From Nitrospirales bacterium (GTDB taxonomy: Bacteria > Nitrospirota > Nitrospiria > Nitrospirales > UBA8639), in NCBI GenBank assembly GCA_963555755.3, contig OY820905.2:960001-1024000 (forward strand): 64,000 bases of DNA. Reading direction: 5' to 3'. The notes under the pieces were generated by a model. The model did no database searches. It was not told where the DNA came from and saw only the letters and a program-made list of their open reading frames with translations. Positions within the stretch are counted from its first letter, which is position 1. Each line of letters starts with the position of its first letter. Positions 25,682-64,000 of the stretch are shown here, in pieces. Position numbers and translations under genes: made by a program.

Positions 25682-27417
25682 AAACGCATGTATCAAAGGT
25701 GAATGTTGAAAAAAGCCGCCAGCGGCGTCCTTTGTAGACGTGAAGCGTGAACCGTGAGGCGTGAAGCGTATACTGGGAAAGGTGAAGAGTGACGGGTAAA
25801 AACATTTCTTTACTCTTTACTCTTTACTCAACACCCATTACGCTTCACCCATTACGAATTTGGCCTTGCTGGATAGACCCTTCGAAAGACTCAGGCAACT
25901 GTTTTTATGCTAATAGGGGCAAAACACATTAATGATGTACATACTATTTTTACTTGAAATTTAAACATGATAATGATATTTTACCCTAAAAAATACACAA
26001 AAAATGTATCTGCTATACTTATATTTAACCTTATCATATAACCCTCAGGGCCATTTCATTCTTTTTATAAGCAAGGGATTCCATGAGGTTTTTTGTGCGC
26101 TCTTTTTCAGGGCAGGGCCATGCGGATGAATAAATGGGGCTTGCCCCAGAGCAGTCTACACGCCTGCGCGATATTGGTGTAGCCTTTCAGGCGTAAGAGA
26201 CTGATGGCATAGCGTCTCAGACAGGTCATGACCATTGGGCCATTGAGACTTCGTATCTGACTCCTGTCTTCATCAAAGGTGACGTCCAACACATAGTGCT
26301 GCTTATTCTCCACACTCCCATGCTTTCGGTTTTGCGAGAGGATGGTCTTCGGCCCGTCTTGTCTTTGGACTGACTCGTGACACCGCAGACCGCTTCGACG
26401 GTCGTGAGGCCCTGCTTGAGATGCGTCACTTCCCTCTCAATGCAGAAGACTTGCTGGACATGAGGAAAGTTGCCATAGGCATTCAGGGAGTCATCGCACC
26501 AGATCCTGCGGGTCGTGATCTGCCCATGGCCTTTCTCGGTGGTGGCATAATCACACCGGCGTGCTCGCAACGCCAAGGCCTCAATGTCGTGCTTCAAGGT
26601 GGGCTGGTTTCCCTTGACGGTGAAGACGAAGTCGGCGCCGCGTTCGTGCACCAGGTACTCGGCAATCTCTTTCTGGGTGAGGAGCGCATCCGCCGTGATC
26701 ACCTTCCCTGCGATCTCGAGCGCATCTAACAGGGGCCGCACGCAGGGGATCTCATTGGTCTTGGAGTGAACTTTTTTTGGGTGAGGTGGCGCCCGGCTTG
26801 ATGGGTGACGGCGCTGAGGACATGGGGCTGTTCGCTTGGGACCTTCGACGTCCCCCGCATGGTCTTCCCATCAATGGCAATGCCCTGATCCTCCCCGCCG
26901 AAGGTGTCCAGCCACCGGCCGAGCAGGGTATCGACTTCACAGGGGTCGACGGCCGTGATAAAGCGGTAAAGAGTGCTGCGGCTCGGGACGAGGTAGCGCC
27001 CCCCTCGCTGAGTACCGCCTAGCCGCTTGCGCATCGGCTGCGATAACGGCTGGGCCCAGTCCGAGATCGCTTCCTAGCCGCGCGCGCCGCACAAGGTGGC
27101 ACAGCACATGATCGCCGTGAGGGCGCGTCGGGTGTGCCGTTGCCCTTGCAAATGGCGGGGATCGGTCAGCTGCACCACATACGTAAAGAGGGAGTCCGTC
27201 TGCTTGGCATTCAATCGCATCTGAGGTACCGCTCCTTTCTGATAGGTCGGATCAAGCATGGGGTGTGCCAGGATCGCTCGGGCTTGGGGATGGAGACTCC
27301 TGACCAGGATACGTTTTGGGCGGTCATGCGGCACATACCGTCTCTTGGCCTTGCGAAACCCTCGGGTCAGCCCGAGCTCGTGCCAGCCGGCGGCTCGCTA
27401 GCAGGTCCCGGTGAAGC

Positions 27418-29320
27418 CAGGGCTATTTCATATTAAAGTGTAACTTTATAGATAATAAGGAATAATCGATTTAGGCTGGCTTTTTCTTTTCGTTTACGGC
27501 ATACTCTTTTGCATGCCAGACGAATCGCCAAGCGGACAGCCGGACATTGATCTGAGGCAAGTCGTGGTTCGCCCAATTGTCCGAGACGAAAAGGACGCCT
27601 TCAAGACCCTTCTCGACAGACACCACTACCTCGGTCATGCCCCGCTGATTGGCCAATCGATACAATATCTCGCCTGTGTGCAGGATCGCTGGCTGGCCTT
27701 GCTGGTGTTTGCGGCGGCGGCCCTCAAATCGAGACCGCGAGACCACTGGATCGGCTGGCCCCCCTGTTTTCAATGGCAACGACTCCATTTACTGGCCAAC
27801 AACACCCGGTTTCTCATGCTGCCGGGCTGTTCGCAAAAGAACCTCGCCTCGAAAGTCCTGTCGCTCTGCGCGAAACGGATCTCGGCCGATTGGCAACTGT
27901 ACCACGGCTACCCCTTGCTCCTCTTAGAGACCTTCGTCGATCCTGCCCGCTTCACCGGGACCTGCTATCGGGCCGCCGGGTGGCACGAGCTCGGTCTGAC
28001 ACGAGGGTTTCGCAAGTCGAACACGTGTTATGTTCAGCATGAGAGACCGAAGCGCATCCTAGTCGTGCGGCTGCATCCCCAAGCCCGAGAGATCCTTGCA
28101 CGCCCGATGCTTGATCAGCCCTATCAGAAAGGAGAAGCGCCTCAGATGAGATTGAATACAAAACAGACGGACTCCCTCTTTACGTATGTGGTGCAGCTGA
28201 CCGATCCCCGCCATTTGCAAGGGCAACGGCACACCCGACGCGCCCTCACGGCGATCATGTTCTGTGCCACCTTGTGCGGCGCGCGCGGCTATGAAGCGAT
28301 CTCGGACTGGGCCCAGCAGTTATCGCAGCCGATGCGCAAGCGGCTAGGCTGTACTCAGCGAGGGGGGCGCTACCTCGTCCCGAGCCGCAGCACTCTTTAC
28401 CGCTTTATCACGGCCGTCGACCCCTGTGAAGTCGATACCCTGCTCGGCCGGTGGCTGGACACCTTCGGCGGGGAGGATCAGGGCATTGCCATTGATGGGA
28501 AGACCATGCGGGGGACGTCGAAGGTCCCAAGCGAACAGACCCACGTCCTCAGCGCCGTCACCCATCAAGCCGGGCGCCACCTCACCCAAAAAAAGTTCAC
28601 TCCAAGACCAATGAGATCCCCTGCGTGCGGCCCCTGTTAGATGCGCTCGAGATCGCAGGGAAGGTGATCACGGCGGATGCGCTCCTCACCCAGAAAGAGA
28701 TTGCCGAGTACCTGGTGCACGAACGCGGCGCCGACTTCGTCTTCACCGTCAAGGGAAACCAGCCCACCTTGAAGCACGACATTGAGGCCTTAGCGTTGCG
28801 AGCACGCCGGTGCGATTATGCCACCACCGAGAAAGGCCATGGGCAGATCACGACCCGCAGGATCTGGTGCGATGACTCCCTGAATGCCTATGTCAACTTT
28901 CCTCATGTCCAGCAAGTCTTCTGCATTGAGAGGGAAGTGACGCATCTCAAGCAGGGCCTCACGACCGTCGAAGCGGTCTGCGGTGTCACGAGTCAGTCCA
29001 AAGACAAGGCGGGGCCGAAGACCATCCTCTCGCAAAACCGAAAGCATTGGAGTGTGGAGAATAAGCAGCATTATGTGTTGGACGTCACCTTTGATGAAGA
29101 CAGGAGTCAGATACGAAGTCTCAATGGCCCAATGGTCATGACCTGTCTGAGACGCTATGCCATCAGTCTCTTACGCCTGAAAGGCTACACCAATATCGCG
29201 CAGGCGTGTAGACTGCTCTGGGGCAAGCCCCATTTAGCCATCCGCATGGCCCTGCCCTGAAAAAGAGGGCACAAAAAACCTCATGGAATCCCTTGCTTAT
29301 AAAAAGAATGAAATGGCCCG
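27418..29320 (+). mobile_element. ISAs1-family IS with N-terminal DUF4338 fusion (ORFs 27513-28640 and 28625-29260)
   Basis: CAGGG ends; 10-bp TSD CCGGTGAAGC; IDGKT.RG, KTNEIP, ADAL..Q, VKGNQ and HW.VEN..HYVLDV.F.ED motifs. Confidence 0.95.
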
Positions 29321-29330
29321 CCGGTGAAGC

Positions 29331-31234
29331 CAGGGCTATTTCATATTAAAGTGTAACTTTATAGATAATAAGGAATAATCGATTTAGGCTGGCTTTTTCT
29401 TTTCGTTTACGGCATACTCTTTTGCATGCCAGACGAATCGGCAAGCGGACAGCCGGACATTGATCTGAGGCAAGTCGTGGTTCGCCCAATTGTCCGAGAC
29501 GAAAAGGACGCCTTCAAGACCCTTCTCGACAGACACCACTACCTCGGTCATGCCCCGCTGATTGGCCAATCGATACAATATCTCGCCTGTGTGCAGGATC
29601 GCTGGCTGGCCTTGCTGGTGTTTGCGGCGGCGGCCCTCAAATCGAGACCGCGAGACCACTGGATCGGCTGGCCCCCCTGTTTTCAATGGCAACGACTCCA
29701 TTTACTGGCCAACAACACCCGGTTTCTCATGCTGCCGGGCTGTTCGCAAAAGAACCTCGCCTCGAAAGTCCTGTCGCTCTGCGCGAAACGGATCTCGGCC
29801 GATTGGCAACTGTACCACGGCTACCCCTTGCTCCTCTTAGAGACCTTCGTCGATCCTGCCCGCTTCACCGGGACCTGCTATCGGGCCGCCGGGTGGCACG
29901 AGCTCGGTCTGACACGAGGGTTTCGCAAGTCGAACACGTGTTATGTTCAGCATGAGAGACCGAAGCGCATCCTAGTCGTGCGGCTGCATCCCCAAGCCCG
30001 AGAGATCCTTGCACGCCCGATGCTTGATCAGCCCTATCAGAAAGGAGAAGCGCCTCAGATGAGATTGAATACAAAACAGACGGACTCCCTCTTTACGTAT
30101 GTGGTGCAGCTGACCGATCCCCGCCATTTGCAAGGGCAACGGCACACCCGACGCGCCCTCACGGCGATCATGTTCTGTGCCACCTTGTGCGGCGCGCGCG
30201 GCTATGAAGCGATCTCGGACTGGGCCCAGCAGTTATCGCAGCCGATGCGCAAGCGGCTAGGCTGTACTCAGCGAGGGGGGCGCTACCTCGTCCCGAGCCG
30301 CAGCACTCTTTACCGCTTTATCACGGCCGTCGACCCCTGTGAAGTCGATACCCTGCTCGGCCGGTGGCTGGACACCTTCGGCGGGGAGGATCAGGGCATT
30401 GCCATTGATGGGAAGACCATGCGGGGGACGTCGAAGGTCCCAAGCGAACAGACCCACGTCCTCAGCGCCGTCACCCATCAAGCCGGGCGCCACCTCACCC
30501 AAAAAAAGTTCACTCCAAGACCAATGAGATCCCCTGCGTGCGGCCCCTGTTAGATGCGCTCGAGATCGCAGGGAAGGTGATCACGGCGGATGCGCTCCTC
30601 ACCCAGAAAGAGATTGCCGAGTACCTGGTGCACGAACGCGGCGCCGACTTCGTCTTCACCGTCAAGGGAAACCAGCCCACCTTGAAGCACGACATTGAGG
30701 CCTTAGCGTTGCGAGCACGCCGGTGCGATTATGCCACCACCGAGAAAGGCCATGGGCAGATCACGACCCGCAGGATCTGGTGCGATGACTCCCTGAATGC
30801 CTATGTCAACTTTCCTCATGTCCAGCAAGTCTTCTGCATTGAGAGGGAAGTGACGCATCTCAAGCAGGGCCTCACGACCGTCGAAGCGGTCTGCGGTGTC
30901 ACGAGTCAGTCCAAAGACAAGGCGGGGCCGAAGACCATCCTCTCGCAAAACCGAAAGCATTGGAGTGTGGAGAATAAGCAGCATTATGTGTTGGACGTCA
31001 CCTTTGATGAAGACAGGAGTCAGATACGAAGTCTCAATGGCCCAATGGTCATGACCTGTCTGAGACGCTATGCCATCAGTCTCTTACGCCTGAAAGGCTA
31101 CACCAATATCGCGCAGGCGTGTAGACTGCTCTGGGGCAAGCCCCATTTAGCCATCCGCATGGCCCTGCCCTGAAAAAGAGGGCACAAAAAACCTCATGGA
31201 ATCCCTTGCTTATAAAAAGAATGAAATGGCCCTG
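29331..31234 (+). mobile_element. Second tandem ISAs1/DUF4338 copy (ORFs 29426-30553 and 30538-31173)
   Basis: Near-identical to 27418-29320; CCGGTGAAGC on both sides. Confidence 0.95.
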
Positions 31235-31827
31235 CCGGTGAAGCGGGCAGGGTCGACGAACGTCTCTAAAAGGAGTAAGGGGTAGCCATGACACTGTTGC
31301 CAATCGGCCGCGATCCGTTTCGCGCAGAGCGCCAGGACTTTCGAGGCGAGGTTCTTTTGCGAGCAGTCCGGCAGGATGAGAAACCGGGTGTTGTTGGCCA
31401 GTCAATGGAGGCGGTGCCAGTGAAAACAGGGAGCCCAGCCGATCCAGTGGTCGCGCGGTTTCGATTTGAGGGCCGCCGCCGCAAACACCAGCAAGGCCAG
31501 CCAGCGATCCTGCACACAGGCGAGATATTGGATCGAGGGGCCAATCAACGGGGCCGGGCCGAGGTAGTGATGTCGGGCGAGGAGGGACTTGAAGGCGTCC
31601 TGCTCGTCCCGGACAATTGGGCGAACCACGACTTGCCTCAGATCAATGACCGGCTGTCCGCTGGGCGATTCGTCTGGCATGCAAAAGAGTATGCCGTAAA
31701 CGAAAAGAAAAAGCCAGCCTAAATCGATTATTCCTTATTATCTATAAAGTTACACTCTAATATGAATTAGCCCTGTATAACCCTATTGTCTGGCATACGA
31801 AAACCTTCAAATGGAGCCTATACCCTC

Positions 31828-34368: not shown

Positions 34369-34373
34369 CGGGC

Positions 34374-35665: not shown

Positions 35666-35748
35666 CTGCCATTTCCCCATAAATAAAGACTGGACAATCT
35701 CATTCATCCTCCAGCAACGCGAACCCCAGGCACATGAACTAAAACTCC

Positions 35749-36747
35749 CCTGCATACCCGGTTGACACCACTAACCACAAGGGATAGTATTTAATGTACG
35801 TATGCGGCAATATCCGAGGACTATTGGAGAATTGCTAAAGCGTTTTCCGGACGAGGCATCCTGCCGTGATTATTTGGAAAAGATCCGGTGGCCAAGTGGA
35901 GTCCAATGTCCGCGATGTCAATCTCTGCGTCTGTGGAGGAGAATGAACCGCCCCGTTCTCAAGTGCGCTGATTGCGATTTCCAAATTTCTATCTTGGCTG
36001 GAACAATGTTCCAAGACACCAAAATTTCCCTGGCAATGTGGTTCCAAGCCATCTGGTGGCTCACGAATCAAAAAACGGGTATCAGTGCGATTGGCTTACA
36101 GCGGGCAGTGGGAATGACGCGCCACGAAACGGCATGGAGAATATTGCACAAACTACGCATCGCCATGGTTCGCCCCCATCAGGATCGTTTGTCTGGAGCA
36201 ATAGAGGTAGATGAAGTGTGCCTCGGTGGGGAAAACAATAAGCAGCTTATCGGAGTTGCTGCGCAAATTGATGGCAAGAAGACGGGCAGAATCCGCATGG
36301 AGAAAATTACCGATCGATCAGGCCCTGTACTACAGGGCTTTGTCGCAAAATACATCAATCCAGGAAGCACCGTCGTCACCGATGGACTGAATAGTTATTG
36401 GGGGGTGACGAATCAGGGCTATATTCATATGCCCATGAAAAAACCATATTCGTGGGAAGAAAAAGGGGGCGATGCCGATGAACTATTGCCGCGCGTTCAC
36501 CGGGTTGCCTCGCTCCTCAAGCGCTGGTACTACGGAACATATCACGGCAGAATTGATCCTATGAACCTGGATACCTATCTCAATGAATTCACGTTTCGAT
36601 TGAACAGACGCACCTCCACTTCGAGGGGCTTGCTTTTTTACCGTGTCCTTGAAAATGCCGTTGCCAAAGATCCCAGCCCCTATGCACCCCAAAAGATGCG
36701 CTAAGATACTACCCCTTGTATGTAGTGGCGTCAACCGGGTATGCAGG
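35749..36747 (+). mobile_element. IS1595-family element, transposase 35802-36704
   Basis: CPRC/C..C zinc ribbon; EVDE, TDG and YLNEF.FR.NRR motifs; TIR CCTGCATACCCGGTTGAC; 8-bp TSD (A/G)AAACTCC. Confidence 0.92.
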
Positions 36748-36881
36748 GAAACTCCGTATATCCCCGCCACAGGAGTTGATGACCTGGTGGCGGGTCGTTG
36801 TTACGTCCGAGATAGCCTCCGATCTTCGCAACCAGTCGCACCGCGTCACCCAACAGCAACGGAGGCTTCAATCGTTTTTTT

Positions 36882-39294
36882 GTAACTACTCAGGTCAATT
36901 TTCTATAGCCTGATTTTTTTCTGGACTAACGGCTCCACCCATGGCATAATCGGGGCCATGAATGAAGCGATTACATGTCAAGGTCGTCGCCTCCCCCAAT
37001 CTGATCTGTGCTGGTTACGCCATCTGGTTTGCCGGCACCCTGACTGGAGCCGCCATAAAATAACCCAGCATATTTGTCGGCACTGGGGCTGGCAGACCCC
37101 GTCCGGACAACTGAAAACCTTTGCCGCCCGCAGCATGATCGACAAACTCGAACATCGCGGGCTCCTGAAGCTGCCCCCGATTCGTGTCGCCTCTCGACGC
37201 AACATCTTCCCCCCTTTCCGAAAGGGGTTTATGCCTCCCGAAGCCCCGCACATCGACGCAGCTCTCAAGACCCTGACGCCCCTGTCCATTCATATTCCAA
37301 CCTCACATTCCTACGAAGCCAGTTGTGTGGGATATTACCTGAGCCACCATCACTACCTCGGGTTCACCCGAACGGTCGGTGAACATCTCAAGTACCTGGT
37401 GCGGGATCGCTCCGGGCAGGATCTGGCCTGCCTCCTCTTCGGTTCCGCCGCCTGGAAAACCACCCCGCGCGACACCTTTATCGGCTGGGAGCCGGACACC
37501 CGAGCCGCCAACCTCAACTTCATGACCAACAATACCCGCTTTCTCATCCTGCCCTGGGTGCGTGTGCCGCATCTGGCCAGCCATCTCCTGGGCCGGGTCA
37601 TGAGACGTCTCCGGCAGGACTGGATCGAGAAATACGGCCATCCCGTCCACTTGGTGGAGACCTTTGTGGAGCGAGACCGCTTCAAAGGTATCTGCTATCA
37701 GGCCGCGAACTGGCTCTATGTCGGGCAGACCAAAGGCCGGTCCCGGCAGGACCGTGACAAGGCTCTGCGCGTGCCGGTGAAGGCAATTTATCTCTATCCC
37801 CTCATCCGCCACTTCCGACAGGCCCTCTGCCGGAGCAAGCCATGACCTTCACCCGCGACGCACTCCTCATCCTGGCCAAGAGCAACCCCGAGGCGCTCGT
37901 CGAACTGATCCTGGCGCTGCAGGAACAGGGGCAGGCGCTGACCACGCATGTCACCGAACTGGCACAGCGGCTCGACCAACACAGTCGCAACAGCAGCAAA
38001 CCGCCCTCGTCCGATGGACCGGCCAAGCCCCGAACCAAGAGCCTGCGCATACCTTCCGGGAAAAAGCCGGGCGGCCAACAGGGACATGCCGGCCAGACGT
38101 TAAAACAGGTGGAAACCCCAGACCACCTGGTCCACCTGCCTGTTCACTCCTGTTCCTGCCATGCCGACCTCACCAACGAGACGGTCACCGGCTATGAACG
38201 CCGGCAGCTCTTTGAACTGCCGGAGCCAAAACTCGACGTCACCGAATATCGGGGAGCAATCAAAACCTGCCCCCAATGCGGCCGCTCGGTCACGGCGTCA
38301 TTTCCTGATGACCTGCCTGCGCCGGCACAGTACGGTCCCAGATTTCGCAGCCTCCTGGTCTACCTCCAGAACCAACAGTTGATCCCCTTACGCCGTGTCA
38401 GCCAGATGATGGCTGATCTGTATGGCGCCTCGGTCAGCGACGCCACCATTGACGAGGCCTCCCGCCGAAGTTATGAGCACCTCGCGCCGTTCGAGACTGC
38501 GGTCAAAGAAGCGCTCGGCAAGAGTCCCATCCTCCATGCCGATGAAAGCGGCGTCCGCACGGCCGGGACGCTCCACTGGCTCCACAGTGCCAGCACGGCC
38601 ACGTTGACCTTTTACGGTGTGCACGCCAAACGGGGAAGAGAGGCGATCGAGCAGTTCCAGATCCTCCCGGATTTTGCTGGCCGCCTGATCCACGATTTCT
38701 GGAAACCCTATCTCTCCTATGACTGTGCCCACGGCCTCTGTAACGCCCATCATTTGCGGGAACTCACGTGCCTGTTCGAGCAGCACGAACAACCATGGGC
38801 CAAACACATGTTTGACCTGTTGCTGACGATGAACGTGTTTGTCAGCAAGCAACTCGCACAGTTAACGGAAGAACAGAAAACCCCCTGGCTGAAACAATAC
38901 AGGGATCTTCTCACCCTCGGATGGCAGGCCAACCCCCTTCCGGCACCGCCACAGAAAAAGTCACGAGGCCGGCCCAAAAAGACCAAGGCCCAAAATCTCC
39001 TCACCCGTCTTGGCGAGCATGAAGCCTCCGTGCTCGCGTTCCTCCATGACAGACAGGTTCCCTTCACTAATAATCTGGCAGAACAGGATATCCGCATGAT
39101 CAAGCTCCGCCTCAAAATATCCGGGTGTTTTCGAACGCTTCAAGGCGCGAGGCAGTTCGCCCGCATACGAAGCTACCTTTCTACCGCGAGAAAGCAGGGC
39201 GGCAACATGCTGCAAGCCATTTCACAAGCCATGATCGGCCACCCCTTTATGCCTGCACAATTCACTACAAAGATCATCACACCTGAGTAGTTAC
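36882..39294 (+). mobile_element. IS66-family element with a DUF4338 ORF (36958-37845) coupled to TnpC (37842-39290)
   Basis: TIR GTAACTACTCAGGT; 8-bp TSD GTTTTTTT; SRNSSKPPSSD, HADES, C.AHHLREL and FTNN.AE.D.R motifs. Confidence 0.95.
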
Positions 39295-41209
39295 GTTTTT
39301 TTTAGCGTAGGCGTGCAAGGTCCGCAATTCAATGTCCGAGAACAGCACCTCGGCCGGCAATTCCGGGGTTTCTCTCCCCAGAAGGGTCATGAGCATAATC
39401 CGCCAGGCAATGACAAGGTTAATGGCAATCGCCCGACACAAACGTTCTGCACTCTCGTGAGCGATCTCCTCAATGCGACAGCCGGATTTCAGCACGCGGT
39501 GCCAGTCTTCGATACGCCATCGCAGAGCGTACCAGCGCAGGCACTGTTCGGCCTCCGCGGCCGAGGAGATATCGATCGTTGTCAGCAGGAACCACTCAAC
39601 GGGCTCAGCCGTTGCCGGCGGGTGCTCTTCCAGCGCATGAACCACCCAGATATCGATGGGTTCCTTGGCGGCGTGGTCGTGTGCCGGACGAAGTTGGATT
39701 CGCCTAGCGCGTACCGCCATATCCGCCGTACGCCCGGCCCGCTTGGGTCGAGCCTGTTGTTTGCTTCTCTTAGGCCGGGCGCTCTGTCGTGGGAGGTGTA
39801 CGCGAATCCGACTCTGAACGGGCGCCTGACGAATGGCGGTGAACAGTTTGAAGGGTTCTTCGGTGATGGTGCGGTTCTGCTTGGCACGGACCAGTAGGCC
39901 AACGCGAGGGTGTTGGCGTTGCTCGTCGAACATGTCGAAGAAGTCCGCTTCCCGGTCGCACACGTCGATCAGGCGCGTCTGAGGCATTTCGGACGCCAGT
40001 TCAACCAGATCGCGGTGCTGCGCAATCCAGTTGAAGGTCTTCTTCTCCTCGATCGGAATGGCGAACGCGGGCCGATCATCTTCCGGTGCTCTGCTTTTGG
40101 GGGCTGTGCACTGAGCACGCAGCACTCCCAAGGGTAGTCCGTTCGGGGCGATCGCCAACATGGAGTGCAAATGGAGTCCGCGGCTCTTTGCACCGGTCTG
40201 GTTGGTGCCAATCTCACCCAGCCCTTCACAGTGATCCAGGTTGGTGTATTCCAAATCGCTGCCGTCCTGCACACACAGCACGGTCTTTTGTCCCTTCATC
40301 CGCCGCACGGTGCGCCTGCGGTGCGGCCTCAGGATGTTGGGCATGGTGATTGCCGAGTCCTCCGGCTGGTCGATCATGCGGTAATAAGCCTTGACCGCCG
40401 CCCAATCGCCCTTGGCCACGCCGCTAAAGGCGCGGCCCGGCACTTCGGCTTTGGCTGCCGCCACGGTTACCAGCCTTTTGCTCAGCCGAGCATCGCCTAG
40501 GGGGGCGCCGCCGAACTCGTGTTCCGCCCAAAGATCTCCCCCCAAACCGTCTGCCGGATTCAACGGACTAAGCCCGGCATTCGGGGGCAACCCCATTCGC
40601 TCCCGAAAGTCGGTCTCGATGGGGTAGACATAAATCGCTTTGGCGCTCAGCGCCGACTGTTTGAAGCGATCTTGTCTGCCGCGCCCCTTGGTCTTCCCCA
40701 CCGCGATCCAGTTCGCCGCCCGATAGCAGGCCCCCGAATAGTGACGGGTGTCGACAAAACTCTCGACCAACCAGGGCTTATAGCCGAACTGGCGCTCAAA
40801 ATCATCGGGCAAAGTCGCAAGACTCATACTCAGCACTTTCGAAGCCAGGTTGCGGCATGGCACGCTCGGACGAAGCAGAAAACGGCTCATCCCCACCACA
40901 CAATGCAGATGGGCTCGGCGCTGCTCGGCATCCCAGCCGATCCACGTGTCACGGTCGGCCAGCTGCAGAGCCGCTGCGGCAAATCCAAATCCGCCCAGCC
41001 AACCATGGTGTGACCCGATGAGGTAGCGCAGCTGCCGCCCGACGAGAGGCCCCGCCCCTTGAGGATGTTCGTTGATCATCAGCTCATTCCATATCCGCAT
41101 CTGCTCGGATGTGCTCACCCGTACCAGCTCCAATCCTTGGACCTTCCCGGCTTGAGACGGAACCGCTACGGCCAAAGGTACCGGCGCCAATAAACGCCGG
41201 GGAGAACTG

Positions 41210-42585
41210 TGTAGTGGTCTAGTTGAATGGGACACCTGGAAAAGGGACAATACCCATCAGGAGGGGTTCAATGGAAACAAGACGACGACAGTACACAGCC
41301 GCGTTCAAGCGCGACGCCGTGGCCCTGGTTATGGAACAAGGCTATACCCTGACCCTAGCCGGCCAGAATTTAGGGATCACGGCCAAATTGCTCTCGCGCT
41401 GGAAGCGCGAACAGCAGCACCATCAGGACGCGGCCTTCCCCGGCCAGGGGCATCAGACGCCCGAGCAATCCGAATTACGCATGTTACGCGAGGACAATCA
41501 GCGCCTACGGATGGAGCGCGACATCTTAAAAACAGCGACGGCCTTCTTCGCCACCCACAACATCTGAGATATCCCTTCATTCACCGTGAACGGCAGACGT
41601 ATCCTGTCCGGCTGCGCTGTGCCGTCTTCGAGGTGAGTGCCAGTGGGTATTATCGGTTTGTGCAACGTGGAGGAGGCCGGGCGCAGGCAGATCCAGCGCT
41701 GATTCTTCAGGTTCAGCAACTCCATCGGGCCTCTCGTCGCAGCTAGGGCTCGCGCCGACTGAGTCAGGCCTTGCAACAGGCTGGGCATGCGATCGGTCGC
41801 GATCGGACACGGACCCTGATGCGCCAGGCGAATCTGAAGCCCACGGGCACAGGGCGGTGTCCGCAGACGACGGATAGCCGCCATGCCTTGCCCCTTGCCC
41901 CTAATATACTCAACCGGCAATTTACGGTCGCGGCGCCTAATCGAGTGTGGGGCAGTGATATCACCGCCCTCTGGACCCAGGAAGGGTGGCTGTATCTCGC
42001 GATTGTGGTGGAGCTGTTTTCCCGCAAAGTCGTGGGCGGGGCCTGTGCGGCCTCCATGGCGACGTGCTGAGTCTCGCAGGCCTTGCAGATGGCCATGGGG
42101 CAACGTCACCCCAAGCCAGGGTTGCTCCATCACTCGGATCGCGGCAGTCAGTATGCCAGTGCGGAGTATCAACAGCAGCTCCGGAACGCCGAGATGGGGT
42201 GCAGTATGAGTCGGAAGGGCAATTGCTATGACAATGCGGTTGTGGAACGGGTATTCCGGAGCCTGAAAGAAGAAGGCTTCACGGAGGAACCACCCGACAC
42301 ACGGGCCGAGGCCACGCTAAGCGTGATTGATTACCTGGCGATGTTTTATAATAGTGAGCGGCTTCACTCGACCTTGGGCTATCAGAGTCCCAATACGTTT
42401 GAGGCACAGGCGGCGAAGACCGATCAAGGGAATACTCCAGTATCAACCAAACCGTGATCGGCCAGTGAGAGGCAAATAGGGACGACAAATTTTTCCCACA
42501 CCCAGGCCAAATCCTCAGCGAGGGCCGTCTGGGCTTATTCACACAATCCCCTTTTCTCCCTGTCCATTTTCACTGGACCACTACA
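41210..42585 (+). mobile_element. IS3-family element, decayed (orfA 41271-41567; orfB with stops)
   Basis: TGTAGTGGTC...GACCACTACA ends; W.SDIT, HSDRGSQY and GNCYDNA motifs. Confidence 0.92.
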
Positions 42586-46143: not shown

Positions 46144-46250
46144 CAATTGTAAATAGTTAACAGGAACCTTTTCTGTTTTTTTTGTGATCACCTTGCATTA
46201 ATTTTTTCTGTGGGCGCCCCCCCTTAGGCACAACTAAGCAAAATGCGCGA

Positions 46251-47162: not shown

Positions 47163-47631
47163 CCTATTTTTAGGGACAGTTTTTAGGGACAAGGATAAGT
47201 TAATAATTTAATTGGCAGCGAGAGGTGACCGGGGTAGAGGACGGACGATGCCCCGACAAGGACGGCTGCCCATTGTGGGCGGCTGCTCCCACGTGAGTGT
47301 TTGGGGTTAGGTTTTTCAATACGACATACTTGGTAAAGGTAGCTGGAATCTTAATCGAAGTATTTTTGCCTGGGTTCGTCCAGGCAGCCGAGGCCCTTTT
47401 GTTTCGGCAAAAGGACCCAAAACCATTTCCACCCAGGTCGGCCACATTGAATCGTGCTGGCGCAGGCAACGGAAGGGCGCCCCAACTCGCAGGCTCAGAC
47501 AAGGGCCGCCCCTGGATTTGAGCGTCAGCCGGTGGGCCAACCTGCAGGCGGGGGGGTATCGTTTTTGGCCTTTTGCCTTACATGGAGTTTCTTGGCCATG
47601 GCGTTGCTTCCTGTGAGCGTTCTTGCTTGTG

Positions 47632-49665
47632 ATAGGGGTAGGGAGGGCGCATTGAGTTGCGCTCCCCCTCCCTCCGAACCGTACGTGCAGTTCTCCCGCA
47701 TACGGCTCTCCAGTCAGTAGGTTCCTATGGAGTGGACGAAACGAATATGGGCATCATTCAGGCTCGTGAACCCATGATCCGCAAAGAAGGCGTTCGGCCA
47801 CCGTTGATTGCGTGCGAGGCGTTGTCGATTCCTTCGGTTCCTTTTCAGAAGCATCCGGCGCAACCGCCGACGGATCATTCCATCGTAGGCCTTGAAGATG
47901 TTCCAAAAACAGTGCCGAAAGTAGTTGAACCACCCTTGCGTCGAGCGAGTGAGCCGGTGGAGAATTACCGCCAGCGAGTCGCCCGATTTCTGCGGCGTCA
48001 GCTCGCGGATGCGGGCGATGAACTTTCGGTGGCTCTTCGCTCGTGGAAACCGCAGCCGGCCTCGGAACGAATAGCCCAGAAACGAAAAGCTCTTCTCCCG
48101 CGAGTCCACGATGTGTGTTTTCTCGGGATGCAGTGTCAGCCCCTTGGCCTCCACCCACCGGCGCACCTCGGCCAGCGCCGCTTCGGCTTCTTCCGGCGTG
48201 CGACACAGGATGACACAGTCATCCGCGTAGCGCACCATCTGAAATCCGAGATCGGACATCCGATGGTCCAGGGGGTTGAGATAGACATTCGACAGCATGG
48301 GAGACAGCACCGCGCCTTGCGGCACACCGGCTTCCGGCGTCCACTCCCGCAGTTCTTCCAGAATCCCCTGGTTCAGACACTTCTTCACCAGGCCCACCAC
48401 ACGGCGATCCGAGATCTTCTGTTGCACTCTGGCCACCAGTCGATCTTTCGGAATCGTCTCGTAGTACTCCTGCACATCCGCGTCGACAACATACACATAC
48501 CCGGCGTCGAGCCATTCCTCGACGCACCGCAGGGCATCATGGCACCCGCGTCCGTGGCGAAAGCCGAAGCTTCGCGCATGGAACATGGCGTCCATAATCG
48601 GCTCAAGCACGTGGACCACTGCCGTTTGCACGACGCGATCCCGCACGGTCGGAATTCCCAACGGGCGCTTCGCCGACCTGTCGGGTTTGGGAATCCACCG
48701 CCGCCGCCCCGCTGCCGGACGATAGGTTCCGTCACCCAGTTCGGCTTGCAACCGATCGAGTTCCGCCCGCTCATGCTCGGCGAACTCCGAACACGTTTGC
48801 CGGTCAACGCCCGCAGCCCCGTTCTTGCCCAGGACCTTCTTGGCCGAGCAGGACAGGTTCAGGCTGCCAGACACCTTATCCCTCAACGTGTGCCATTTGC
48901 CTCCTCTCACGTTGTCTGCCATCAGTGTCGCCACCATGCGATCTGTCCACACCGCTCGATGAGCCCACTGGTCGATCCCAGGAAGCTCCCCAGCCGGGGT
49001 AGCCGAACACGGCACTGTGACGGGGATGTCATCTCGACGCGGGGTCGAGGCTTGACGTGTCGGCGGTTGAGGCATTTCACATCTACCTTCCTGCTCCCCT
49101 TCGCGCCACCGCGTTCTGGTGCACGGCTTCCCCGCTATTATGAGAGCTCTGACTTCTGTCGAGCCGCTTCATCCAACGTCATCGGTATCGCTTCGTTCGT
49201 TCCCCTGCGGCACGCGATACGGCACCGAGGGGCCTGGGCCATTGATCACGCAGCGTCCCCCACTGCGAATGGTCACGACACGGCGTCCACGTCCTTCACC
49301 CGACAGATCTCCCTGCTTAGCTCGTTTGACCTTCCGACCATTCCATCTCCAACCACCACCTTGCCATTTCGCCACGGTCGCTTTCCCACGTTACGTCACC
49401 GCCGTGACTTGCCGCGTCTATCCCCCGGGCAGACTCTCAGGTCGAAGGGATCTGCCGTCGCGCGATCAAGGGTTCGGACATCGCTAGGAGCCTCCCCGAC
49501 AGGCTTGGCCGAATCGAGTTCACGTTCGTTACGGACTGGTCGTTCGTCTCAGATTGCTCTCCACCCTTCCTCACGGAAACGCAGTGACCACTGTCGACTT
49601 CAGGCTGGTAACGTTCGCCTGAGAGGGACTTGCACCCTCCTGATCAAACGCCTTCACAGGCGCAC
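47632..49665 (-). mobile_element. Group II intron with RT/maturase ORF 49075->47714 (no endonuclease domain; missense decay)
   Basis: 5' GTGCG; domain V GAGCCGTATGCGGGAGAACTGCACGTACGGTTC; 3' end CCCCTAT; RPLGIP, PQG.VLSP and YADD motifs. Confidence 0.93.
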
Positions 49666-49850
49666 TCGCTGCAGCATCTCATGCTGCCTCTTCCTGGCGT
49701 CAGAGCCCCTTGGTCCGTGGGAAGAGGGCACGATACGATCGTGCAGCGACACAAGCAAGAAAGCTCACAGGAAGCAACGCCATGGCCAAGAAACTCCATG
49801 TGGCCAGAATTGGATGGCGGTAGGATAGAACCATATATTCTGTATGATCC

Positions 49851-52410: not shown

Positions 52411-52423
52411 GGGAGACCTCATC

Positions 52424-53771: not shown

Positions 53772-53971
53772 GTCATTTCGACCGGAGGGAGAAATCTGTG
53801 GTTCGGCCACAATAAAAGATCCCCGCAGCAAGCTGACGGGGTATTCAGAGGAACAATATGATTTTGAAAATCCCCCTACCCCCCTTTTCCAAAGGGGGGA
53901 CCTAAGCGGGAACCCCGTAGCAAGCTACGGGGAATACAAAGTTCAAGATTTCTCGTAAGACTCGAAATGAC
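53772..53971. repeat. Nested REP-like pairs: GTCATTTCGA outer pair, CCCCG.AGCAAGCT.CGGGG hairpins, and a central CCCCCTTT..AAAGGGGG
   Basis: Concentric palindromes; related units at ~34930-35107 and ~50290-50402. Confidence 0.7.
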
Positions 53972-54102
53972 AGGGCGGATGCGTGTGGCGCGGTCCGAGA
54001 AACAAGAAACATTGGAGTTCGTCTTTGGAGTTTTTTTTCTGTGGGCACCCCCGCCTTCGGATGCGGCGGAGGAACCCCCTTGGGGCCGCATACGGGCGGA
54101 CA

Positions 54103-54762: not shown

Positions 54763-55587
54763 TGGTTTTGGACACGTTTGCCGAAACAACAGTGCCTTGT
54801 CGTGTGGGGGCGACACCCCTTAAAAACATTCGGCTCTTCAGGAAAATTTGTGGGTCGAGCACCTAACGAATCCTTTCCAAGGCACTGAAAAACCAACGAA
54901 TTTTCCCACCGGGGACCGGTTTTATTTCGATGCTCATATTCAATTGACTCATGGGGAAGTTTCGGATCAGTTGCAATTTTGGTGGAGTCGAGGCCTATGG
55001 CGATGACGGACATACTATGCGAGGGGCTCCTGTTCTGATTTAGGCGTCCAATCCCGTTCCGTTCGTGGTGAGCTTGTCGAACCATGAATGGTACACATTG
55101 AAGTTTCTGACCCTTCGACAAGCTCAGGGCGAACGGATTCTGTCAAGGAAGGTCTGACTCAAGACGCGAGTCTCACTCCACCAAAATTGCGATTGATCCG
55201 AAGTTTCCCTCAGGGTCCACAAGCCGATTAAGCCTACGGTGCAGGGGCTATGGCATGTGGCCTTGTGGGAAACCTCCTGAGTAGCGCCCTTATGGGGCGC
55301 GGCCCACCCAGACGACGGAAAGTAACTCGTGAGGCAACTGAGGAGGCACAGGAGAGAAGAAAGGCCGAGGTCTGGTGAACCTGAATCCGTCATCCCCGAC
55401 GTTGGTTATCGGGGATCTATCTTAAGAACGAACCTGGATTCCCGATAACAGACGTCGGGAATGACGCGGGGAGGTACCTAGCGCCCTTATGGCGCGCGGC
55501 GCACCCGGACGACGGAGGATAGCATGAAGTTACTTAGGAGTTACCTGAGAAGTACCCACAAATTCTTCGGAGGAGCCAAACATTCTT

Positions 55588-55887
55588 CTACGAGAGACGT
55601 GGTTTCCAGGTATCAGGGTGACGGAAAAGGTGAAGAACTGCTAGGACTGTGACTTCTTCTCCAGTGGGGTTGAAATACACACCATATGGAAATCGGTGCA
55701 GTAGCGCACGACGAACTGGATCGTCAATGGCAGGAAATTGAAGCGGCATGGTGGCGACACGCTCGAAAAGAACAGACAGTTGGTCCAAAAACTCTACGCC
55801 CAAATTGCGACGCTGTTCTTCATACCATAGCGTAGCATTCACCACATCAAGATCGGCTTCTGGATGGAACCTGAGGGGAAGAGGCAT
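55588..55887 (-). CDS. RelE/ParE-family toxin
   Basis: F.PEA..D.....WYE, LG.EF, RRALL.RFPY and VLAV.H..R.P..W motifs. Confidence 0.88.
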   Translation of the reverse strand: MPLPLRFHPEADLDVVNATLWYEEQRRNLGVEFLDQLSVLFERVATMPLQFPAIDDPVRRALLHRFPYGVYFNPTGEEVTVLAVLHLFRHPDTWKPRLS

Positions 55888-56805: not shown

Positions 56806-58140
56806 GAGGGTGTACGATTAACTGTGTAACTGGTTATCATGACCGTTCCATTGAATAAGGAGGAATGATGACCAGAGGTAAGACCCCAAGCCAAACGGAC
56901 GTGCTGCTCGATGAATTGGTGGAGGGCTGTGAGTCGTCCGACGATCTGTTCGGGAAACATGGGCTCCTGGAACGCCTGACGAAACGCCTGGTGGAACGCG
57001 TCTTGCGGGCGGAACTCACGGAGCATTGAGGCTATGCACCGCATGCCCCGGAGGGCCGGGAATCTGGCAATGCTCGCAATGGGTGTACGCCCCAAACGGT
57101 GCAAACCGCGAGCGGAGATCTTCCGCTCCAGGTGCCTCGTGATTGCCAAGGCAGCTTTGAGCCGATGGTGGGGCCCACACGCCAGCGGCGCTTGGACGGG
57201 TTTGATGACACGGTCCTGGCCTTGTATGCCCGGGGCTTGACGACTCGGGATATTCAGGGGCATCTGGAAGAGCGCTATGACGTGGAGGTGTCGCCCACGC
57301 TCATTTCGACGATTACCGATGCGGTGGTGGAGGATGTTCGAACTTGGCAGAGTCGGCCCTTGGACGCCGTGTATCCGATCCTGTATGTCGATTGCCTGTT
57401 TGTGACATCTCGGCAAGAGGGTGTTGTCAAGAATAACGCCGTGTCGGTCGCCTTGGGAGTGAACCTGCAAGGGGAGAAAGAACTCCTGGGACTCTGGGTG
57501 AGTGAGACGGAAGGCGCCAAGTTCTGGCTGTCGGTCTTTACGGCACTCCAGGGCCGCGGGGGCGAAGATGGCTTTGTGGCCTGCGTCGATGGGCTCGCGG
57601 GGTTGCCTGCCGCCTTGGAAACGGTGTTCCCCCCCACTCAGGTGCAACTGTGCATTGGCCATAAGGTCCGTCAGTCCTTGCGGTATGTGGTGTGGAAAGA
57701 GCGGCGGGCCGTGGCGCGGGATCTACGGGCCCTCTATGGCGCCGCGACGTTGTCGGAGGCGGAAGCCGCATTCGAGCGATTTGCCCCGACGTGGGATGCG
57801 AAATATCCGACGAGCAGTGCGACGTGGCGACGGGATTGGGCGCGGCTGACCGTCTTCTTTGACTATCCCCCAGCAATCCGAACAGTCAGCTATACGACGA
57901 ATGCGATTGAGTCACTCCATTTTTCATTACGTAAAGTCCTGAAAAGTCGCGGGGCCTTTCCGACCGATGAATCAATCCTGAAAGTGTTGTATCTCGGGAG
58001 GCTGCGGATTGCCAAAAAATGGACGATGCCCATTCCGGACTGGAAGCGAGCCCTCAACCAATTCGCCATCCTTTTAGGAGATCGGGTGCCAAGACGCTAA
58101 GCAAAGAAAGAATCAGTTACACAGTTAACTGGACAGGCCC
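56806..58140 (+). mobile_element. IS256-family element; transposase is a pseudogene
   Basis: IR G.G..TGT.C..TTAACTGTGTAACTG; EGAKFWL, VDGL.G and YTTNAIES motifs; in-frame TGA near 57028. Confidence 0.92.
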
Positions 58141-58281
58141 AAAATACTCTCGTTCGAGGTTGCCCCACACGCCACGATCGCCTCGCGACCCATACTCACG
58201 TATCCCTCCATTTCCTCACCCACCCGGTTCTTCCGCCTCCCTCGCCTGAGCTTCAAACTCATTGGGTCCGGGGTCAGGTCT

Positions 58282-59750
58282 CAATACTGTTCACTTAGAT
58301 GAAAATCTGTTATACTTCGCCTCCACACGTAATCTGGGAGGAGGCAACATGGCAAGAAAGAAAGTCGGCTTGGGGGCGGGGGCTCGATTGGCGGATTATT
58401 TGAGCACGGGATTACTGGCTCGTGCCTTTCCGGTGGCCATCATCAACGAAGAACTTGACGCACATCATTGTAACAGTGAACGTGTCCGCACCTTTCCCGC
58501 TTCTGCCGTGGTGTACTACACCATGGCGTTGAGCTTATACAGCGAGGCCGCGTACGAAGCGGTGTTTGCCGCTGTGGCCCAAGGGCTGGCATGGAAAGAC
58601 CACAAACCCGTTGCTCCCGTGACCGTTGTCAAATCCGCCATCAGCAAAGCCCGCTCACGGCTGACGTGGCAGGCGCTGAAAGCCATTGGACAGCGCTGCT
58701 TGCGCCCGTTGGCTCGTCCAGAGCATGCCCACGCCTTTTTTGCAGGCTACCGACTCGTCGCGATAGATGGCTCCAACTTTGAGGTCCCGGATGAGGAAGC
58801 CAATGTGCAAGCCTTTGGGTACCCAGGGAGCCGAACCGGGCAGGCCGGCTACCCCCAAGCCCAGTGCGCCATTTTGACGGAATGTGCCAGTCACGCCATT
58901 TTGGATGCCGAACTAGGGGCCTATAAGCAGGCCGAATGGGAGGTGGCCGCGCCCTTGGTGCGTCGCCTCACGCCCGACATGCTCTGCATGGCCGATCGCG
59001 GCTTTGTCGGGTACGCCCATTGGCAGGCCGGCCTTCAGACCGGAGCGCAACTACTCTGGCGCATGCCGAAGAGCTTGATCCTTCCAGTTGACAAGCTGTT
59101 GGACGATGGCTCGTACCTGAGCCATCTGTATCCCAGTGAACGCGCCAGAAGAAAGCGAATTGATGGGATCGCCATCAGGGTGATTGAGTATGTCTTACCG
59201 CAGGGGCCCAATAGCGAACCGCTGTACCGTCTCGTCACCACGCTGCTGGATGACCAAGGCGCACCCGCCCAGGACCTGGCTCAACTGTATCACGAGCGCT
59301 GGGAGGTGGAATTGGTGTTTGATGAGCTGAAGACGCACCTGAGGCAACGTCGTCGCGTCCTGCGCAGTAAAACGCCAGAGTTGGTGCGTCAAGAGTTCTA
59401 CGGATGGGTGATGGCCCACTACGCCGTGCGCTGGTTGATGTATCAAGGGGCCACCCAGGCAGACATCCCTGACCGCACGGTATCTTTTACGGCCACGGTG
59501 CAGTTAGTGCGTCGAACCCTGCCCCAATCTGGGGCCCTTCCCCCCTGAGCGCCAAAAAACATGGTATCGGCTGCTGTTTGAGGCGACGGCGAAACTGTTG
59601 TGTGAATCCAGTCGTGGAAAAATCAAGCCGAGGATGGTGAAACGCCGAAACTCTCCATACGCACCGTACAAACGTCCGAGACCGCCCGTTGCGCAAATTG
59701 ACTGGACACCATCCATCAAACCACCGAAGATATCTAAGTGAACAGTATTG
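58282..59750 (+). mobile_element. IS4-family element (1469 bp), second copy; transposase 58349-59548
   Basis: Same TIR as 23351-24819; 10-bp TSD GGTCAGGTCT. Confidence 0.95.
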
Positions 59751-59792
59751 GGTCAGGTCTCACATTCCTACCGGCCCTGTTGTACGCAAGCC

Positions 59793-61614: not shown

Positions 61615-62265
61615 CAACGATCTCGACGACCCACTTGCAGGCCTACCAGGCCGAGGGTATGAGCCACCGGCACCGTGCCGGTCTCTCCCGACGAAAGACC
61701 GCACAGTTCACTGGGCTATGGCCCGATCTGGTTAAATGAAGCTGCTAGACAACACCACCAGATTTAGGAGAGCCTCCACCAAGCGCAAGGTTGCAGTTCT
61801 ACGATGACGGATTTAGTGGACATAAAAGCCACCCCAAATCCTTCGGTTGGACTTTCGTTGAGATTCTTTTGATTCGGCACTGCTATGCTCGTCGCTCCAA
61901 AGTTCAGATTGCGGCATAGCGAGCGGGTGCCACGCATGTCGCAAGGGCACGTTATCTTAGATAGTGATATTCAACATTCTGTGTGATTCGACTCCTGGGG
62001 TTGCCCTCCTTGCTCCTGTCCTGGGTGCCACCTATGGCTAATTCAAGCTTAGGGACGTTCACCTAACTAGCTGTTTTGGTTGCACGCTCGATGATCTATA
62101 TCCCCTGAGAAGAACGAGGGACGCGGCGATGCTCATCCTTACGGATCATGCAGAATGTAGGGTTCTGGCAGCACAATACGATCAGGTGCACATAAAGTTA
62201 TGGCACTCCTCGTGGGTGATGTCGCCTCTCCTTTTGAGCGAATGGCGTCGTCTTGTATTTTTAGG

Positions 62266-62310
62266 ATAGGGGTAGGGAGGGCGCATTGAGTTGCGCTCCC
62301 CCTCCCTCCG
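62266..62310 (-). mobile_element. 3' end (domain VI) of a second copy of the 47.6-kb intron, acting as host for a nested intron
   Basis: 45 nt identical to 47632-47676. Confidence 0.88.
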
Positions 62311-64000
62311 GTAGGGTCGAGGACTGGCGCGCCAACGGTAGGGGTCGGTGGCTCCTCCACCCCTTTCAGAGTGGGCCTCAATCCGACTCCCCTGGTCACG
62401 GTTCCAGTCCCCGCCACCTCAAACCCGGCGTGCTGATTTCCAGCACCGGGCTTTCCTGGATGCTTCACCTCAAGGGTTATGTGACCTCTCAGCCTGGAAG
62501 GACTTTCATGCCGACCCGTTGTACCGCACTCGGTAATCTCCATATAAGCCGAGTACCGTGTAGAGCCAAACCTTACTCCACCTCTTCCAGCCAAAACCTC
62601 GACGGTGGCGCACTCGCATCATGTGCCGCCGGACCTTCCGCTCCACCCAATCCTTCACGTAGGAGAAACACCGACTCGCATGCCCAATCCGAAAGTCGTT
62701 CACCCAGCCCCGTACGATCGGATTGATCATCGCGATCATCCGTCCCACCGGCTGGGATTGTCCGCGTCGGAACACTGCCTTGAGCTTCCGCAGCCACGCG
62801 GTGCGCCGCTTCACCTTCGGTATGTACTGCGGGCGCCACACCCCACGCCGCGACCGCACACGCCGAAAGTCAAAGCCCAGAAAGCCGAAGCTGCCTCCCT
62901 GACTCAGGTCCACGATCCGGCTCTTCTCCTCATTCACCTGAAGGGCTCATTGGGCCAACGCCTCTCGCAGCTTCCGCTCCGCGACCTGCGCCAGTTGTGC
63001 GTGGCGGCGATAGCCATCCACTAACACGACGAGGTCATCCGCAAACCGAACATACTCGAGATACGTATACTGGCCCTGCCGGGTTGTCTCCTTCAGCTGC
63101 TCCAGCCTCTCATCCACTTCCGTGAGATAGAGGTTGGCCAGCAGCGGGGCAATCACACCCCCTTGAGGCACCCCACGCGGGCCGGACGCCTTGACGATGA
63201 GGTTCACCAGCCGCAGGATCGCGGGATCCTGGATGCGTCGGGCCACCTTCGCCAGCAGCCGGTCATGCCGCACCGTGTCGAAGAAGGCCGCCAGATCCAC
63301 ATCAATCACTCGCGTCTTGTTCTGCACCATCGCCTGAGCCACCCGGCCAATCGCCTGGTGGGCTGTCCGTTTCGGGCGATACCCATACGACCCATCACGA
63401 AAATCCGCCTCAAAGATCGGTTCCAGCAGGAGCTTGAGCGCTCCCTATACCACGCGGTCCCGAATCGCGGGTATCCCTAAGACGCGGACTCGTCCACCGC
63501 CTTTCGAAATCTCCACGTGCCGGTTCCGCATCGGTCGGTAGGTCTGCGTGACCAGTTCGTCCCGCAGTCGTGCAAGAAAGGGCTCCACCCCCGTGGCCTC
63601 GATGACCGCAAACGTCACCCCATCAATGCCGGGGGCTCCGTTGTTTTTCTTGGCCATCGCATAGGCCGCGCGTAGCGTCGCCTCTTTGCACACGTGGACG
63701 TACAGGCCCCACACCCGCCATCGCTTCTCAGCCTTCGCCTTGACGTAGAGCCGCTGTCGCAGGTCTTGCAGTGTAATGGACGCCGTTGTCATCTCGTCCC
63801 TGCCTCCCATGTTGATCACAGCCTACAGCCAGTAGGGCTCCTTTGCTCCACAGGCATTACCCTGCTTCCTCGCTCCTACGAGCCCCTCCGCCACCCTCTC
63901 GTCTTCGACTCACTTCCCAGAGAGCTGGTTATAGAGCCGATCTTCCTCCAGGGATTTCGCCCTGGGACAAGGAGGGCTTCTCCAGTTGCGTCGTCTGTCC
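62311..64000 (-). mobile_element. Group II intron (5' end beyond the window); RT pseudogene 63792->62506
   Basis: Domain V AAGCCCGGTGCTGGAAATCAGCACGCCGGGTTT; 3' GACCCTAC; LGIP.IRDRVV, PQGG and FADD motifs; stops at 63445 and 62947. Confidence 0.9.

Follow-up and report, generated by a model that had tools for sequence, protein, structure and literature searches.

A stretch of 64,000 nucleotides from the chromosome of a Nitrospirales bacterium (G000:C1:960001-1024000, in the following "the window") raises the question whether mobile DNA mutates like the rest of the chromosome that carries it. From 26 kb onward the window consists mostly of mobile DNA, i.e., insertion sequences (IS) of the ISAs1, IS66, IS50-like, IS1595, IS4 and IS256 types and group II introns, and in a decayed ISAs1-type element A:T pairs have been replaced by C:G pairs much more often than the reverse. 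The initial annotation of the window had regarded this as the mark of either a genome-wide mutator or a mutagenesis directed at mobile DNA. A comparison of the whole assembly (G000; 4.62 Mb, two contigs, 99% complete, about 850 kb of repeats) with its relatives revealed two spectra on one chromosome, a transition-rich spectrum in genes and an A:T>C:G-rich spectrum in resident mobile DNA. All substitution counts refer to assembled sequences.

The decayed ISAs1-type element lies in two parts (Table 1) and was compared with the first of the intact copies that are inserted into it. The 95 substitutions comprised 39 A:T>C:G, 22 C:G>T:A, 15 A:T>G:C and 11 C:G>G:C changes, together with four C:G>A:T and four A:T>T:A changes. 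Comparing A:T>C:G with its reverse, 39 of 43 changes pointed in one direction (p=3e-8). For the span that had been aligned by hand in the initial annotation, with about 23 A:T>C:G changes and about one reverse change, the computed alignment yielded 23 versus 1 among 52 differences, and the changes TTA>TGA, TAT>TAG noted there and, in an intron-encoded reverse transcriptase (RT), YADDF>YADDC were recovered as well (positions in Table 1). The reading of the decayed copy needs correction nonetheless: it is a mosaic, and most of its differences are shared with other subfamilies. Seventy of the 95 differences were common to other subfamilies (27 A:T>C:G, 3 reverse), 5 were ambiguous, and 20 were private (12 A:T>C:G, two of which create stop codons, and 1 reverse). 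Some young ISAs1 copies also carry 2 of these 12 private A:T>C:G alleles, and only 2 A:T>C:G changes were found at the variable sites among 33 young copies.

At 27408-31239 two intact ISAs1 copies stand in tandem within an older ISAs1 copy, and further tandem pairs are present at G000:C1:89411-93232 and 4163778-4167521. In all young copies the transposase is split over two frames (27513-29260), with an A run at about 28587-28593 that suggests programmed frameshifting.

In nearest pairs of repeats across the genome, differences between A:T and C:G (A:T<>C:G) made up 82 of 179 at identities of at least 99.5%, 135 of 277 at 99-99.5%, and 445 of 1317 at 90-92%. The load was determined with 77 single IS and intron copies, each of which is at most 10% diverged from a relative. 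They had accumulated 790 private changes, including 245 A:T>C:G, and the load averaged 0.93 per 100 A:T sites, ranging from zero in 23 copies up to 5.1. Near-pure one-way copies had A:T>C:G fractions of 22/24, 12/13 and 19/29. Strong cases were found among IS256, IS91-like, IS1380, IS30-like, IS1595 and intron copies, and the highest shares occurred in low-copy families. Stops once listed for IS256 family 21 were not counted, because they are possibly the natural terminal stop. A crude polarized count over all repeat types gave only 1001 A:T>C:G among 5726 changes (17%), which is low owing to the inclusion of short hairpins, of old divergence under selection and of mis-polarized three-copy families. 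Short high-copy hairpin repeats showed a weak effect (8-20% in most), the old divergence between IS subfamilies was ordinary (283 of 1336 at four-fold sites), and non-mobile duplicates had about 20% outside non-synonymous sites. Within the single copies, 179 A:T>C:G changes were non-synonymous versus 29 synonymous, compared with 184 versus 221 for the other classes (some copies are counted twice in this table of single and amplified lineages), and amplified lineages had 6 A:T>C:G among 90 changes. Therefore, the excess looks unselected, and it belongs to resident copies and not to spreading lineages.

The spectrum of core genes was determined with two congeners, G005 (94% identical to G000; assembly 64% complete) and G006 (90% identical), of which 291 kb and 550 kb, about 13% and 23% of the assemblies, were sampled. 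At core four-fold sites present in all three genomes, the G000 branch had 20 A:T>C:G, 39 A:T>G:C and 23 C:G>A:T among 181 changes, the G005 branch had 37 A:T>C:G among 266, and unpolarized A:T<>C:G differences amounted to 763 of 3317, with no asymmetry. This gives a core load of 20 per 1039 A:T sites; the mobile copies with the highest load reach 4-7 per 100. The A:T<>C:G share was about 25% in DNA outside open reading frames (ORFs; 227/911 and 578/2352) and 25.5% and 26% in 20 codon-flat single-copy segments (84/329 and 109/416), and the least diverged genes had 4 among 78. When 229 segments were scanned against G005, the two extremes (65% and 70%) turned out to be one single-copy ISL3 element. 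Taken together, the core four-fold sites, the non-ORF DNA and the codon-flat DNA ruled out a general mutator as source of the excess in the loaded copies, and they speak against the genome-wide alternative of the initial annotation. Masking by selection at four-fold sites was also rejected: in a simple model none of 24 mutation-selection settings fitted, as A:T>C:G was at least 1.6 times the reverse versus 1.1 observed.

The ISL3 element is also present in G005 and G006, and its site differs at least in G005. Its branches in the three congeners carried A:T>C:G fractions of 33/69, 41/67 and 34/58, and the ratio of A:T>C:G to A:T>G:C was 108:17 versus 125:210 in core genes (p=3e-22). Over the three genomes A:T>C:G reached 5.1% per non-synonymous chance versus 0.5% for A:T>G:C, and it made up 87 of 133 non-synonymous changes. 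At four-fold sites the values were 8.5% versus 3.1% in core genes, and transitions were rarer than in core genes. Relatives of this element were found in none of 400 other genomes of the phylum at E 1e-100. In a member of another genus (G016; one contig, 98% complete), one decayed IS had 19 A:T>C:G among 46 changes versus 3 A:T>G:C, and its active sister had 7 among 23. The pooled private changes of G016, mainly from old paralogues, included 142 of 1237, and IS-like pairs more than 98% alike yielded 13 of 31. For G025, young pairs gave a fraction of 5/6 and old pairs one of 20/187, and the copies of G210 showed hardly any differences. IS loci on two E. coli chromosomes exhibited no excess (8 of 90 private changes, 13-19% unpolarized). 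As far as tested, the pattern is thus family-wide and absent from E. coli IS, and outside the genus it is represented by one copy.

The chemistry was analyzed with 380 changes of loaded copies, which had been picked for high load, and with a wider set. In the loaded set a weak lean in context was observed (TAA 2.45-fold, AAA 1.5-fold, AAC 1.23-fold, GAC 0.79-fold, CAC 0.67-fold), and 114 of the 380 changes had a 3' A versus 25% (p=0.03); in the wider set the 3'-A value was 1.10-fold and not significant. No enrichment of GATC, runs of G (5 of 380), GGGT or longer motifs was found among the 380 changes, and the Mom motif SASNY was present at 53 of 380 sites versus a background of 16.0% (wider set: 16.2% versus 15.1%). 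An apparent ATTAA signal was discarded, because the ISL3 background had been counted three times and only one event lay outside ISL3. Adjacent changes were on the same strand in 192 of 361 cases versus 196 expected, which excluded strand-coordinated bursts, and the spacing was mostly random. In three of the four sets, T>G changes on the leading strand outnumbered A>C changes by a factor of 1.2 to 1.5, and this lean persisted after stratification by element strand (p=0.02). It would fit replication errors in the resident copy, with G inserted opposite A at the fork. The coding strands of the single copies had 138 A>C and 107 T>G changes, with low A:T>G:C and A:T>T:A. There was no clear halo in the flanks of IS, neither in G005 (14% within 500 bp versus 11% beyond) nor in G006. 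Of the directed mutagenesis envisaged in the initial annotation, the confinement to mobile DNA was supported, but an adenine-targeting enzyme in the style of fungal repeat-induced point mutation (RIP) was not, because motif, clustering and strand coordination were missing and the bias follows the replichore.

The genes mutT, mutM, mutS and mutL and two Y-family polymerase genes are intact in G000. MutT is encoded by an ORF of 135 amino acids with a full Nudix box and reached 99.7 bits with the model TIGR00586, barely above the cut-off of 97.9; it is intact in G005, too. The MutY of G000 (252 amino acids) matches only positions 2-212 of the 277 of its model and is without the C-terminal domain, which provides the preference for 8-oxoguanine (8-oxoG). 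The best MutY matches in 30 relatives were all below the cut-off, as in G000. The mutT gene is located directly 3' of the short mutY (L005:1043-2394, L035:1246-2601), and in G000 as well as G005 the mutT stop and a hairpin repeat overlap. Between these two genomes the mutY-mutT pair shares 90% identity, compared with 94-97% for its neighbours. The errors typical of mutT strains are A:T>C:G, and at G:A pairs it is the A that MutY excises (PMC12606429); a 3' A is described as the preferred context of mutT errors (10.1101/2022.10.21.513255). An Argonaute that senses repeats was dismissed, because a Piwi match was found in none of nine genomes.

A mutT-like mutator might nevertheless have been active in the past or in a sub-lineage, with traces persisting only in neutral blocks, because core DNA of mutator cells would be lost through the deleterious changes linked to it, or exchanged by recombination, and dead IS would survive or be imported. 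Replication errors, which are expected in all DNA, would have this class, this weak context and this leading-strand lean, the load is uneven between copies, and the divergence of the mutY-mutT pair could mark a past replacement. In addition, a gene adjoining a loaded IS cluster has 12 A:T>C:G among 49 changes on the G000 branch versus 6 of 70 and 6 of 58 in the relatives. However, such a mutator must have worked alike in four genomes, namely three congeners and another genus, both polarizable branches are without an excess in core genes, and the mutT genes of G000 and G005, with the putative 8-oxo-dGTPase as product, are intact. Together with the core load, the least diverged genes and the model settings given above, this makes a past mutator rather unlikely. 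The mutT mutators described for E. coli and P. aeruginosa share with the present case the one-way A:T>C:G class, the weak context, perhaps with some 3'-A lean, and the scattered single changes (PMC12606429, 10.1101/2022.10.21.513255; signature also from 10.1101/2024.10.22.619742 and PMC7523724), but they hit core synonymous and non-ORF DNA, where the excess is missing here.

Two further explanations were considered. One is sequencing or assembly error in repeats, for which it speaks that A>C and T>G errors are frequent in short reads. It is hardly credible, since loads reach 5 per 100 A:T sites, the sites differ between three separate assemblies, alleles were inherited by several copies, a G-run context is missing, and core genes are clean. 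The second is element-length synthesis outside the fork, i.e., gap repair following excision, copy-out, rolling circle or retrohoming, by an error-prone polymerase from an oxidised or uracil-rich pool. The affected element classes all gain copies through such synthesis, the two Y-family polymerase genes would be available, and in the IS1595 family some sets of A:T>C:G changes map to internal branches with later duplication. But the amplifying lineages are the least affected, including the young ISAs1 copies, no flank halo extends beyond 500 bp, and the context differs from that of DNA polymerase IV (Pol IV), which renders this explanation quite improbable. The oxidised-nucleotide signature of Pol IV is reported to favour a 5' G and/or a 3' C and to avoid TAA and AAA (10.1101/2024.10.22.619742), in contrast to the depletion of GAC and CAC and the enrichment of TAA and AAA found here.

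A dedicated modification of adenines in mobile DNA, e.g., by the possibly Mom-like DruA/DUF4338 domain, would require an adduct that miscodes as C:G. DruA (PF14236) had 53 matches in G000 and 5 in G006, and 27 of 30 relatives had none. The domain occurs, with shared motifs, on transposases of four unrelated types: ISAs1 (27513-28640, fused to DDE_Tnp_1_assoc in ORF A of the intact copy), IS66, the IS50/Tn5-like element (Table 1), and a DDE fusion of 792 amino acids (G000:C1:576033-578411, L127). In one look-alike cluster of DruA, the Mom family was found on 12% of the members, and Mom is known to acylate N6 of adenine in double-stranded DNA (PMC13219725). The initial annotation had offered a link between this domain and the bias as a speculation, and it was not sustained: the load was 15 per 1797 A:T sites (0.83 per 100) in elements with DruA versus 230 per 24561 (0.94) in those without, so that no cis effect is apparent. 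G016 shows the pattern in one copy and is without a DruA match, as is G005 with its 64% complete assembly. Moreover, SASNY and other motifs were not seen, and a trans-acting enzyme would also need to spare core genes. An adenine modification is accordingly regarded as very improbable. Phage Mu Mom (PMC7261163, PMC13219725, PMC7824862) resembles the present case in that possibly Mom-like domains occur on IS here, but SASNY and a cis link are missing, and in the accessible portions of these sources Mom is not reported as mutagenic or tied to IS. The repeated capture of DruA suggests that the domain is useful to the elements, e.g., for shielding their DNA.

Young IS and intron copies of G000 swap very short patches with older copies, some of them below 20 bases. 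Variants of young groups were also present in an older copy in 36 of 79 cases versus 4.2 expected, often without an adjacent difference, and at the ISAs1 sites 468 and 1122 all four allele combinations are present. Biased gene conversion between copies that pair often has to be weighed, in which MutY, which is present in G000, would resolve A:G in hybrids to C:G, and the new alleles would resist erasure or spread, while active copies would overwrite the other private changes. Gene conversion needs no higher mutation rate, single-copy genes are without a partner, and it would account for the contrast between neutral-looking A:T>C:G and the selected other classes, for the replichore lean and for the missing halo. 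Short-patch correction of A:G to C:G by MutY was reportedly described by Au et al. in 1988 for E. coli and by Samrakandi and Pasta in 2000 for pneumococcus. MutY acts on transformation heteroduplexes in H. pylori in the same direction (PMC2582958), but this is described for transformation and not for IS copies. Furthermore, the exchange observed here shows no clear preference for the class: the shared fraction was 11/18 for A:T>C:G, 9/15 for A:T>G:C, 5/6 for C:G>G:C and 2/7 for the reverse C:G>A:T, small numbers into which ancestry is mixed, and some of the shared variants go back to retained ancestry. A:G would form in only half of the hybrids, and the reasoned bias of about two-fold is below the 12/13 or 22/24 of the near-pure copies. 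Low-copy families are the highest, and ISL3 is at present single-copy in G000. Gene conversion as the main cause is thus considered unlikely.

An explanation has to cover the class and the direction of the changes, their confinement to mobile DNA, the near-neutral codon spread, the absence of a motif and of strand runs, the leading-strand lean and the intact repair genes. It is tentatively proposed, with less than even confidence, that A:G errors survive until MutY fixes them, and that in silent mobile DNA they do so several- to ten-fold more often than in expressed DNA. G, probably as oxidised dGTP, would be misinserted opposite template A during chromosome replication, the mispair would be left standing, and the MutY without the C-terminal 8-oxoG-recognition domain would fix it to C:G. 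From the known chemistry, this misinsertion and fixation are probable. The input resembles a replication error that reaches all DNA, and hence the selective step must come later. A transcription-linked correction would reach expressed genes and amplifying master copies, and silent copies would miss it; it is favoured because neither expressed genes nor amplifying lineages show the excess. That it causes the difference between the compartments is a conjecture that may well prove wrong.

Several points weigh against this proposal. To our knowledge, no bacterial pathway acts on A:G or A:8-oxoG on both strands of transcribed DNA, and a repair of the template strand only predicts an excess of T>G on the coding strand, while core four-fold sites had 12 A>C and 8 T>G changes. 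The silence of the loaded copies is an assumption. In the control with non-mobile pseudogenes, eight genes with at least two lesions had 28 A:T>C:G among 151 non-synonymous changes versus 16 reverse, but these genes are too few and too young to stand for old ones, and a rapA fragment had 8 of 27 versus 4 reverse. The load is very uneven, with none in 23 of the 77 single copies, and sister branches differ in load beyond chance (p=2e-6), as they do in other classes. A load close to the mean of 0.93 per 100 A:T sites could go unnoticed at core sites, and the heavily loaded copies are the only ones above this level. Finally, the TAA lean is gone in the wider set (WAA 57/474 versus 10.7%), and the strand lean is absent in the youngest groups (58 versus 54).

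Fungal RIP also leaves a one-way signature in mobile repeats, breaks them and shifts the base content. However, RIP is a C>T process, whereas the A:T>C:G changes raise the GC content and are without dinucleotide motif, clustering and strand runs. The changes in G000 are confined to repeated or mobile DNA as with RIP; concerning a dependence on a homologous copy, the single-copy ISL3 is strongly and the high-copy hairpins are weakly affected. A heritable bacterial counterpart of RIP that mutates resident mobile DNA via A:G mispairs and the short MutY, and that gradually inactivates IS and introns but not expressed genes, seems unlikely. The adenine mutagenesis of diversity-generating retroelements differs, as it changes A to any base on one strand, while here A>C and T>G occur and other A:T classes are low. 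In the repair-proficient wild type of Burkholderia cenocepacia A:T>C:G is likewise described as the commonest transversion (10.1101/011841), but genome-wide and about level with transitions, while here it reaches ten times A:T>G:C and is restricted to mobile DNA. T>G hotspots at G runs (10.1101/2022.10.28.514265) share the class and the leading-strand lean, but GGGT is not enriched here. The uracil-driven single-base-substitution signature SBS17 (10.64898/2026.08.21.746158) has the same T>G class, and a route via uracil and abasic sites is a possible chemistry here. The class A:T>C:G as such is known. Its restriction to resident mobile DNA of repair-proficient cells seems to be new: a literature search that covered few subscription papers yielded no description of such an excess limited to mobile DNA in bacteria.

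The initial annotation had extended the one-way signature to further elements of the window, and this applied to some of them. Relative to the nearest copy, the IS256 copy had 46 A:T>C:G versus 11 reverse changes and the decayed intron at 62260 had 12 versus 1 among 28 differences. No excess was present in the elements at 52900-54060 (0 of 17) and 54065-55600 (4 of 21). The intron at 47631 had 17 versus 2 against one copy and 4 versus 5 against its closest copy. The IS4-family copy is an internal example of an amplifying element without the bias. The RT motif of the second intron is RFADD and not YADD (63045). Among the IS, a protein of 860 amino acids with an inverse-autotransporter beta domain and beta-helix repeats is encoded (31786-34368). 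Elsewhere in the genome, the contig ends G000:C1:4607280-4609744 and C1:1-2091 match C1:34549-36935 at 98.7-100%, which may be due to a duplication or an assembly join.

Table 1. Mobile elements of the window and selected changes within them (positions are those of the window).
Feature	Position	Strand	Remark
Decayed ISAs1-type element, 3' part	26048..27417	-	element positions 532-1902; A:T>C:G in 23 of 55 differences and 10 of 16 private changes
TAT>TAG stop from T>G change	27074	-	in the decayed ISAs1 copy
Intact ISAs1-type copy	27418..29319	+	1902 bp; lies inserted within the decayed copy; no difference from the consensus of 33 young copies
Second intact ISAs1-type copy, in tandem	29331..31232	+	one difference from consensus
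Decayed ISAs1-type element, 5' part	31235..31775	-	element positions 1-541; A:T>C:G in 16 of 40 differences and 2 of 4 private changes
TTA>TGA stop from T>G change	31403	-	in the decayed ISAs1 copy
IS1595-family element	35748..36748	+	6 A:T>C:G, 0 reverse among 11 differences from the other copy, not polarized by an outgroup
Young IS66-family element	36879..39294	+	separate DruA/DUF4338 ORF (36958-37845); zero private changes; inverted twin at 43731-46146
IS50/Tn5-like transposase fused to DruA/DUF4338 domain	39277..41250	-	
Group II intron with RT (47714-49075)	47631..49850	-	YADDC at 48229; YADDF in one sister copy
Diverged IS256-family copy	56811..58140	+	nearest copy 84% identical; old mixed background
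Young IS4-family copy	58265..59771	+	twin at 23330-24836 (-); zero private changes
Decayed group II intron	62260..64000	-	A:T>C:G in 6 of 10 private changes

Bacterial mutation spectra are usually taken as one per genome and read from dead IS and pseudogenes, and both spectra and datings that are based on IS would be biased in such genomes. The excess could help to explain why the GC content of IS is above that of the host (75% versus 62% at four-fold sites). It points to an unrecognized transcription-tied repair, a MutY-dependent drive among repeats, or a defence that ages mobile elements. Dormant mobile DNA is thus likely to mutate by other rules than the rest of the chromosome.

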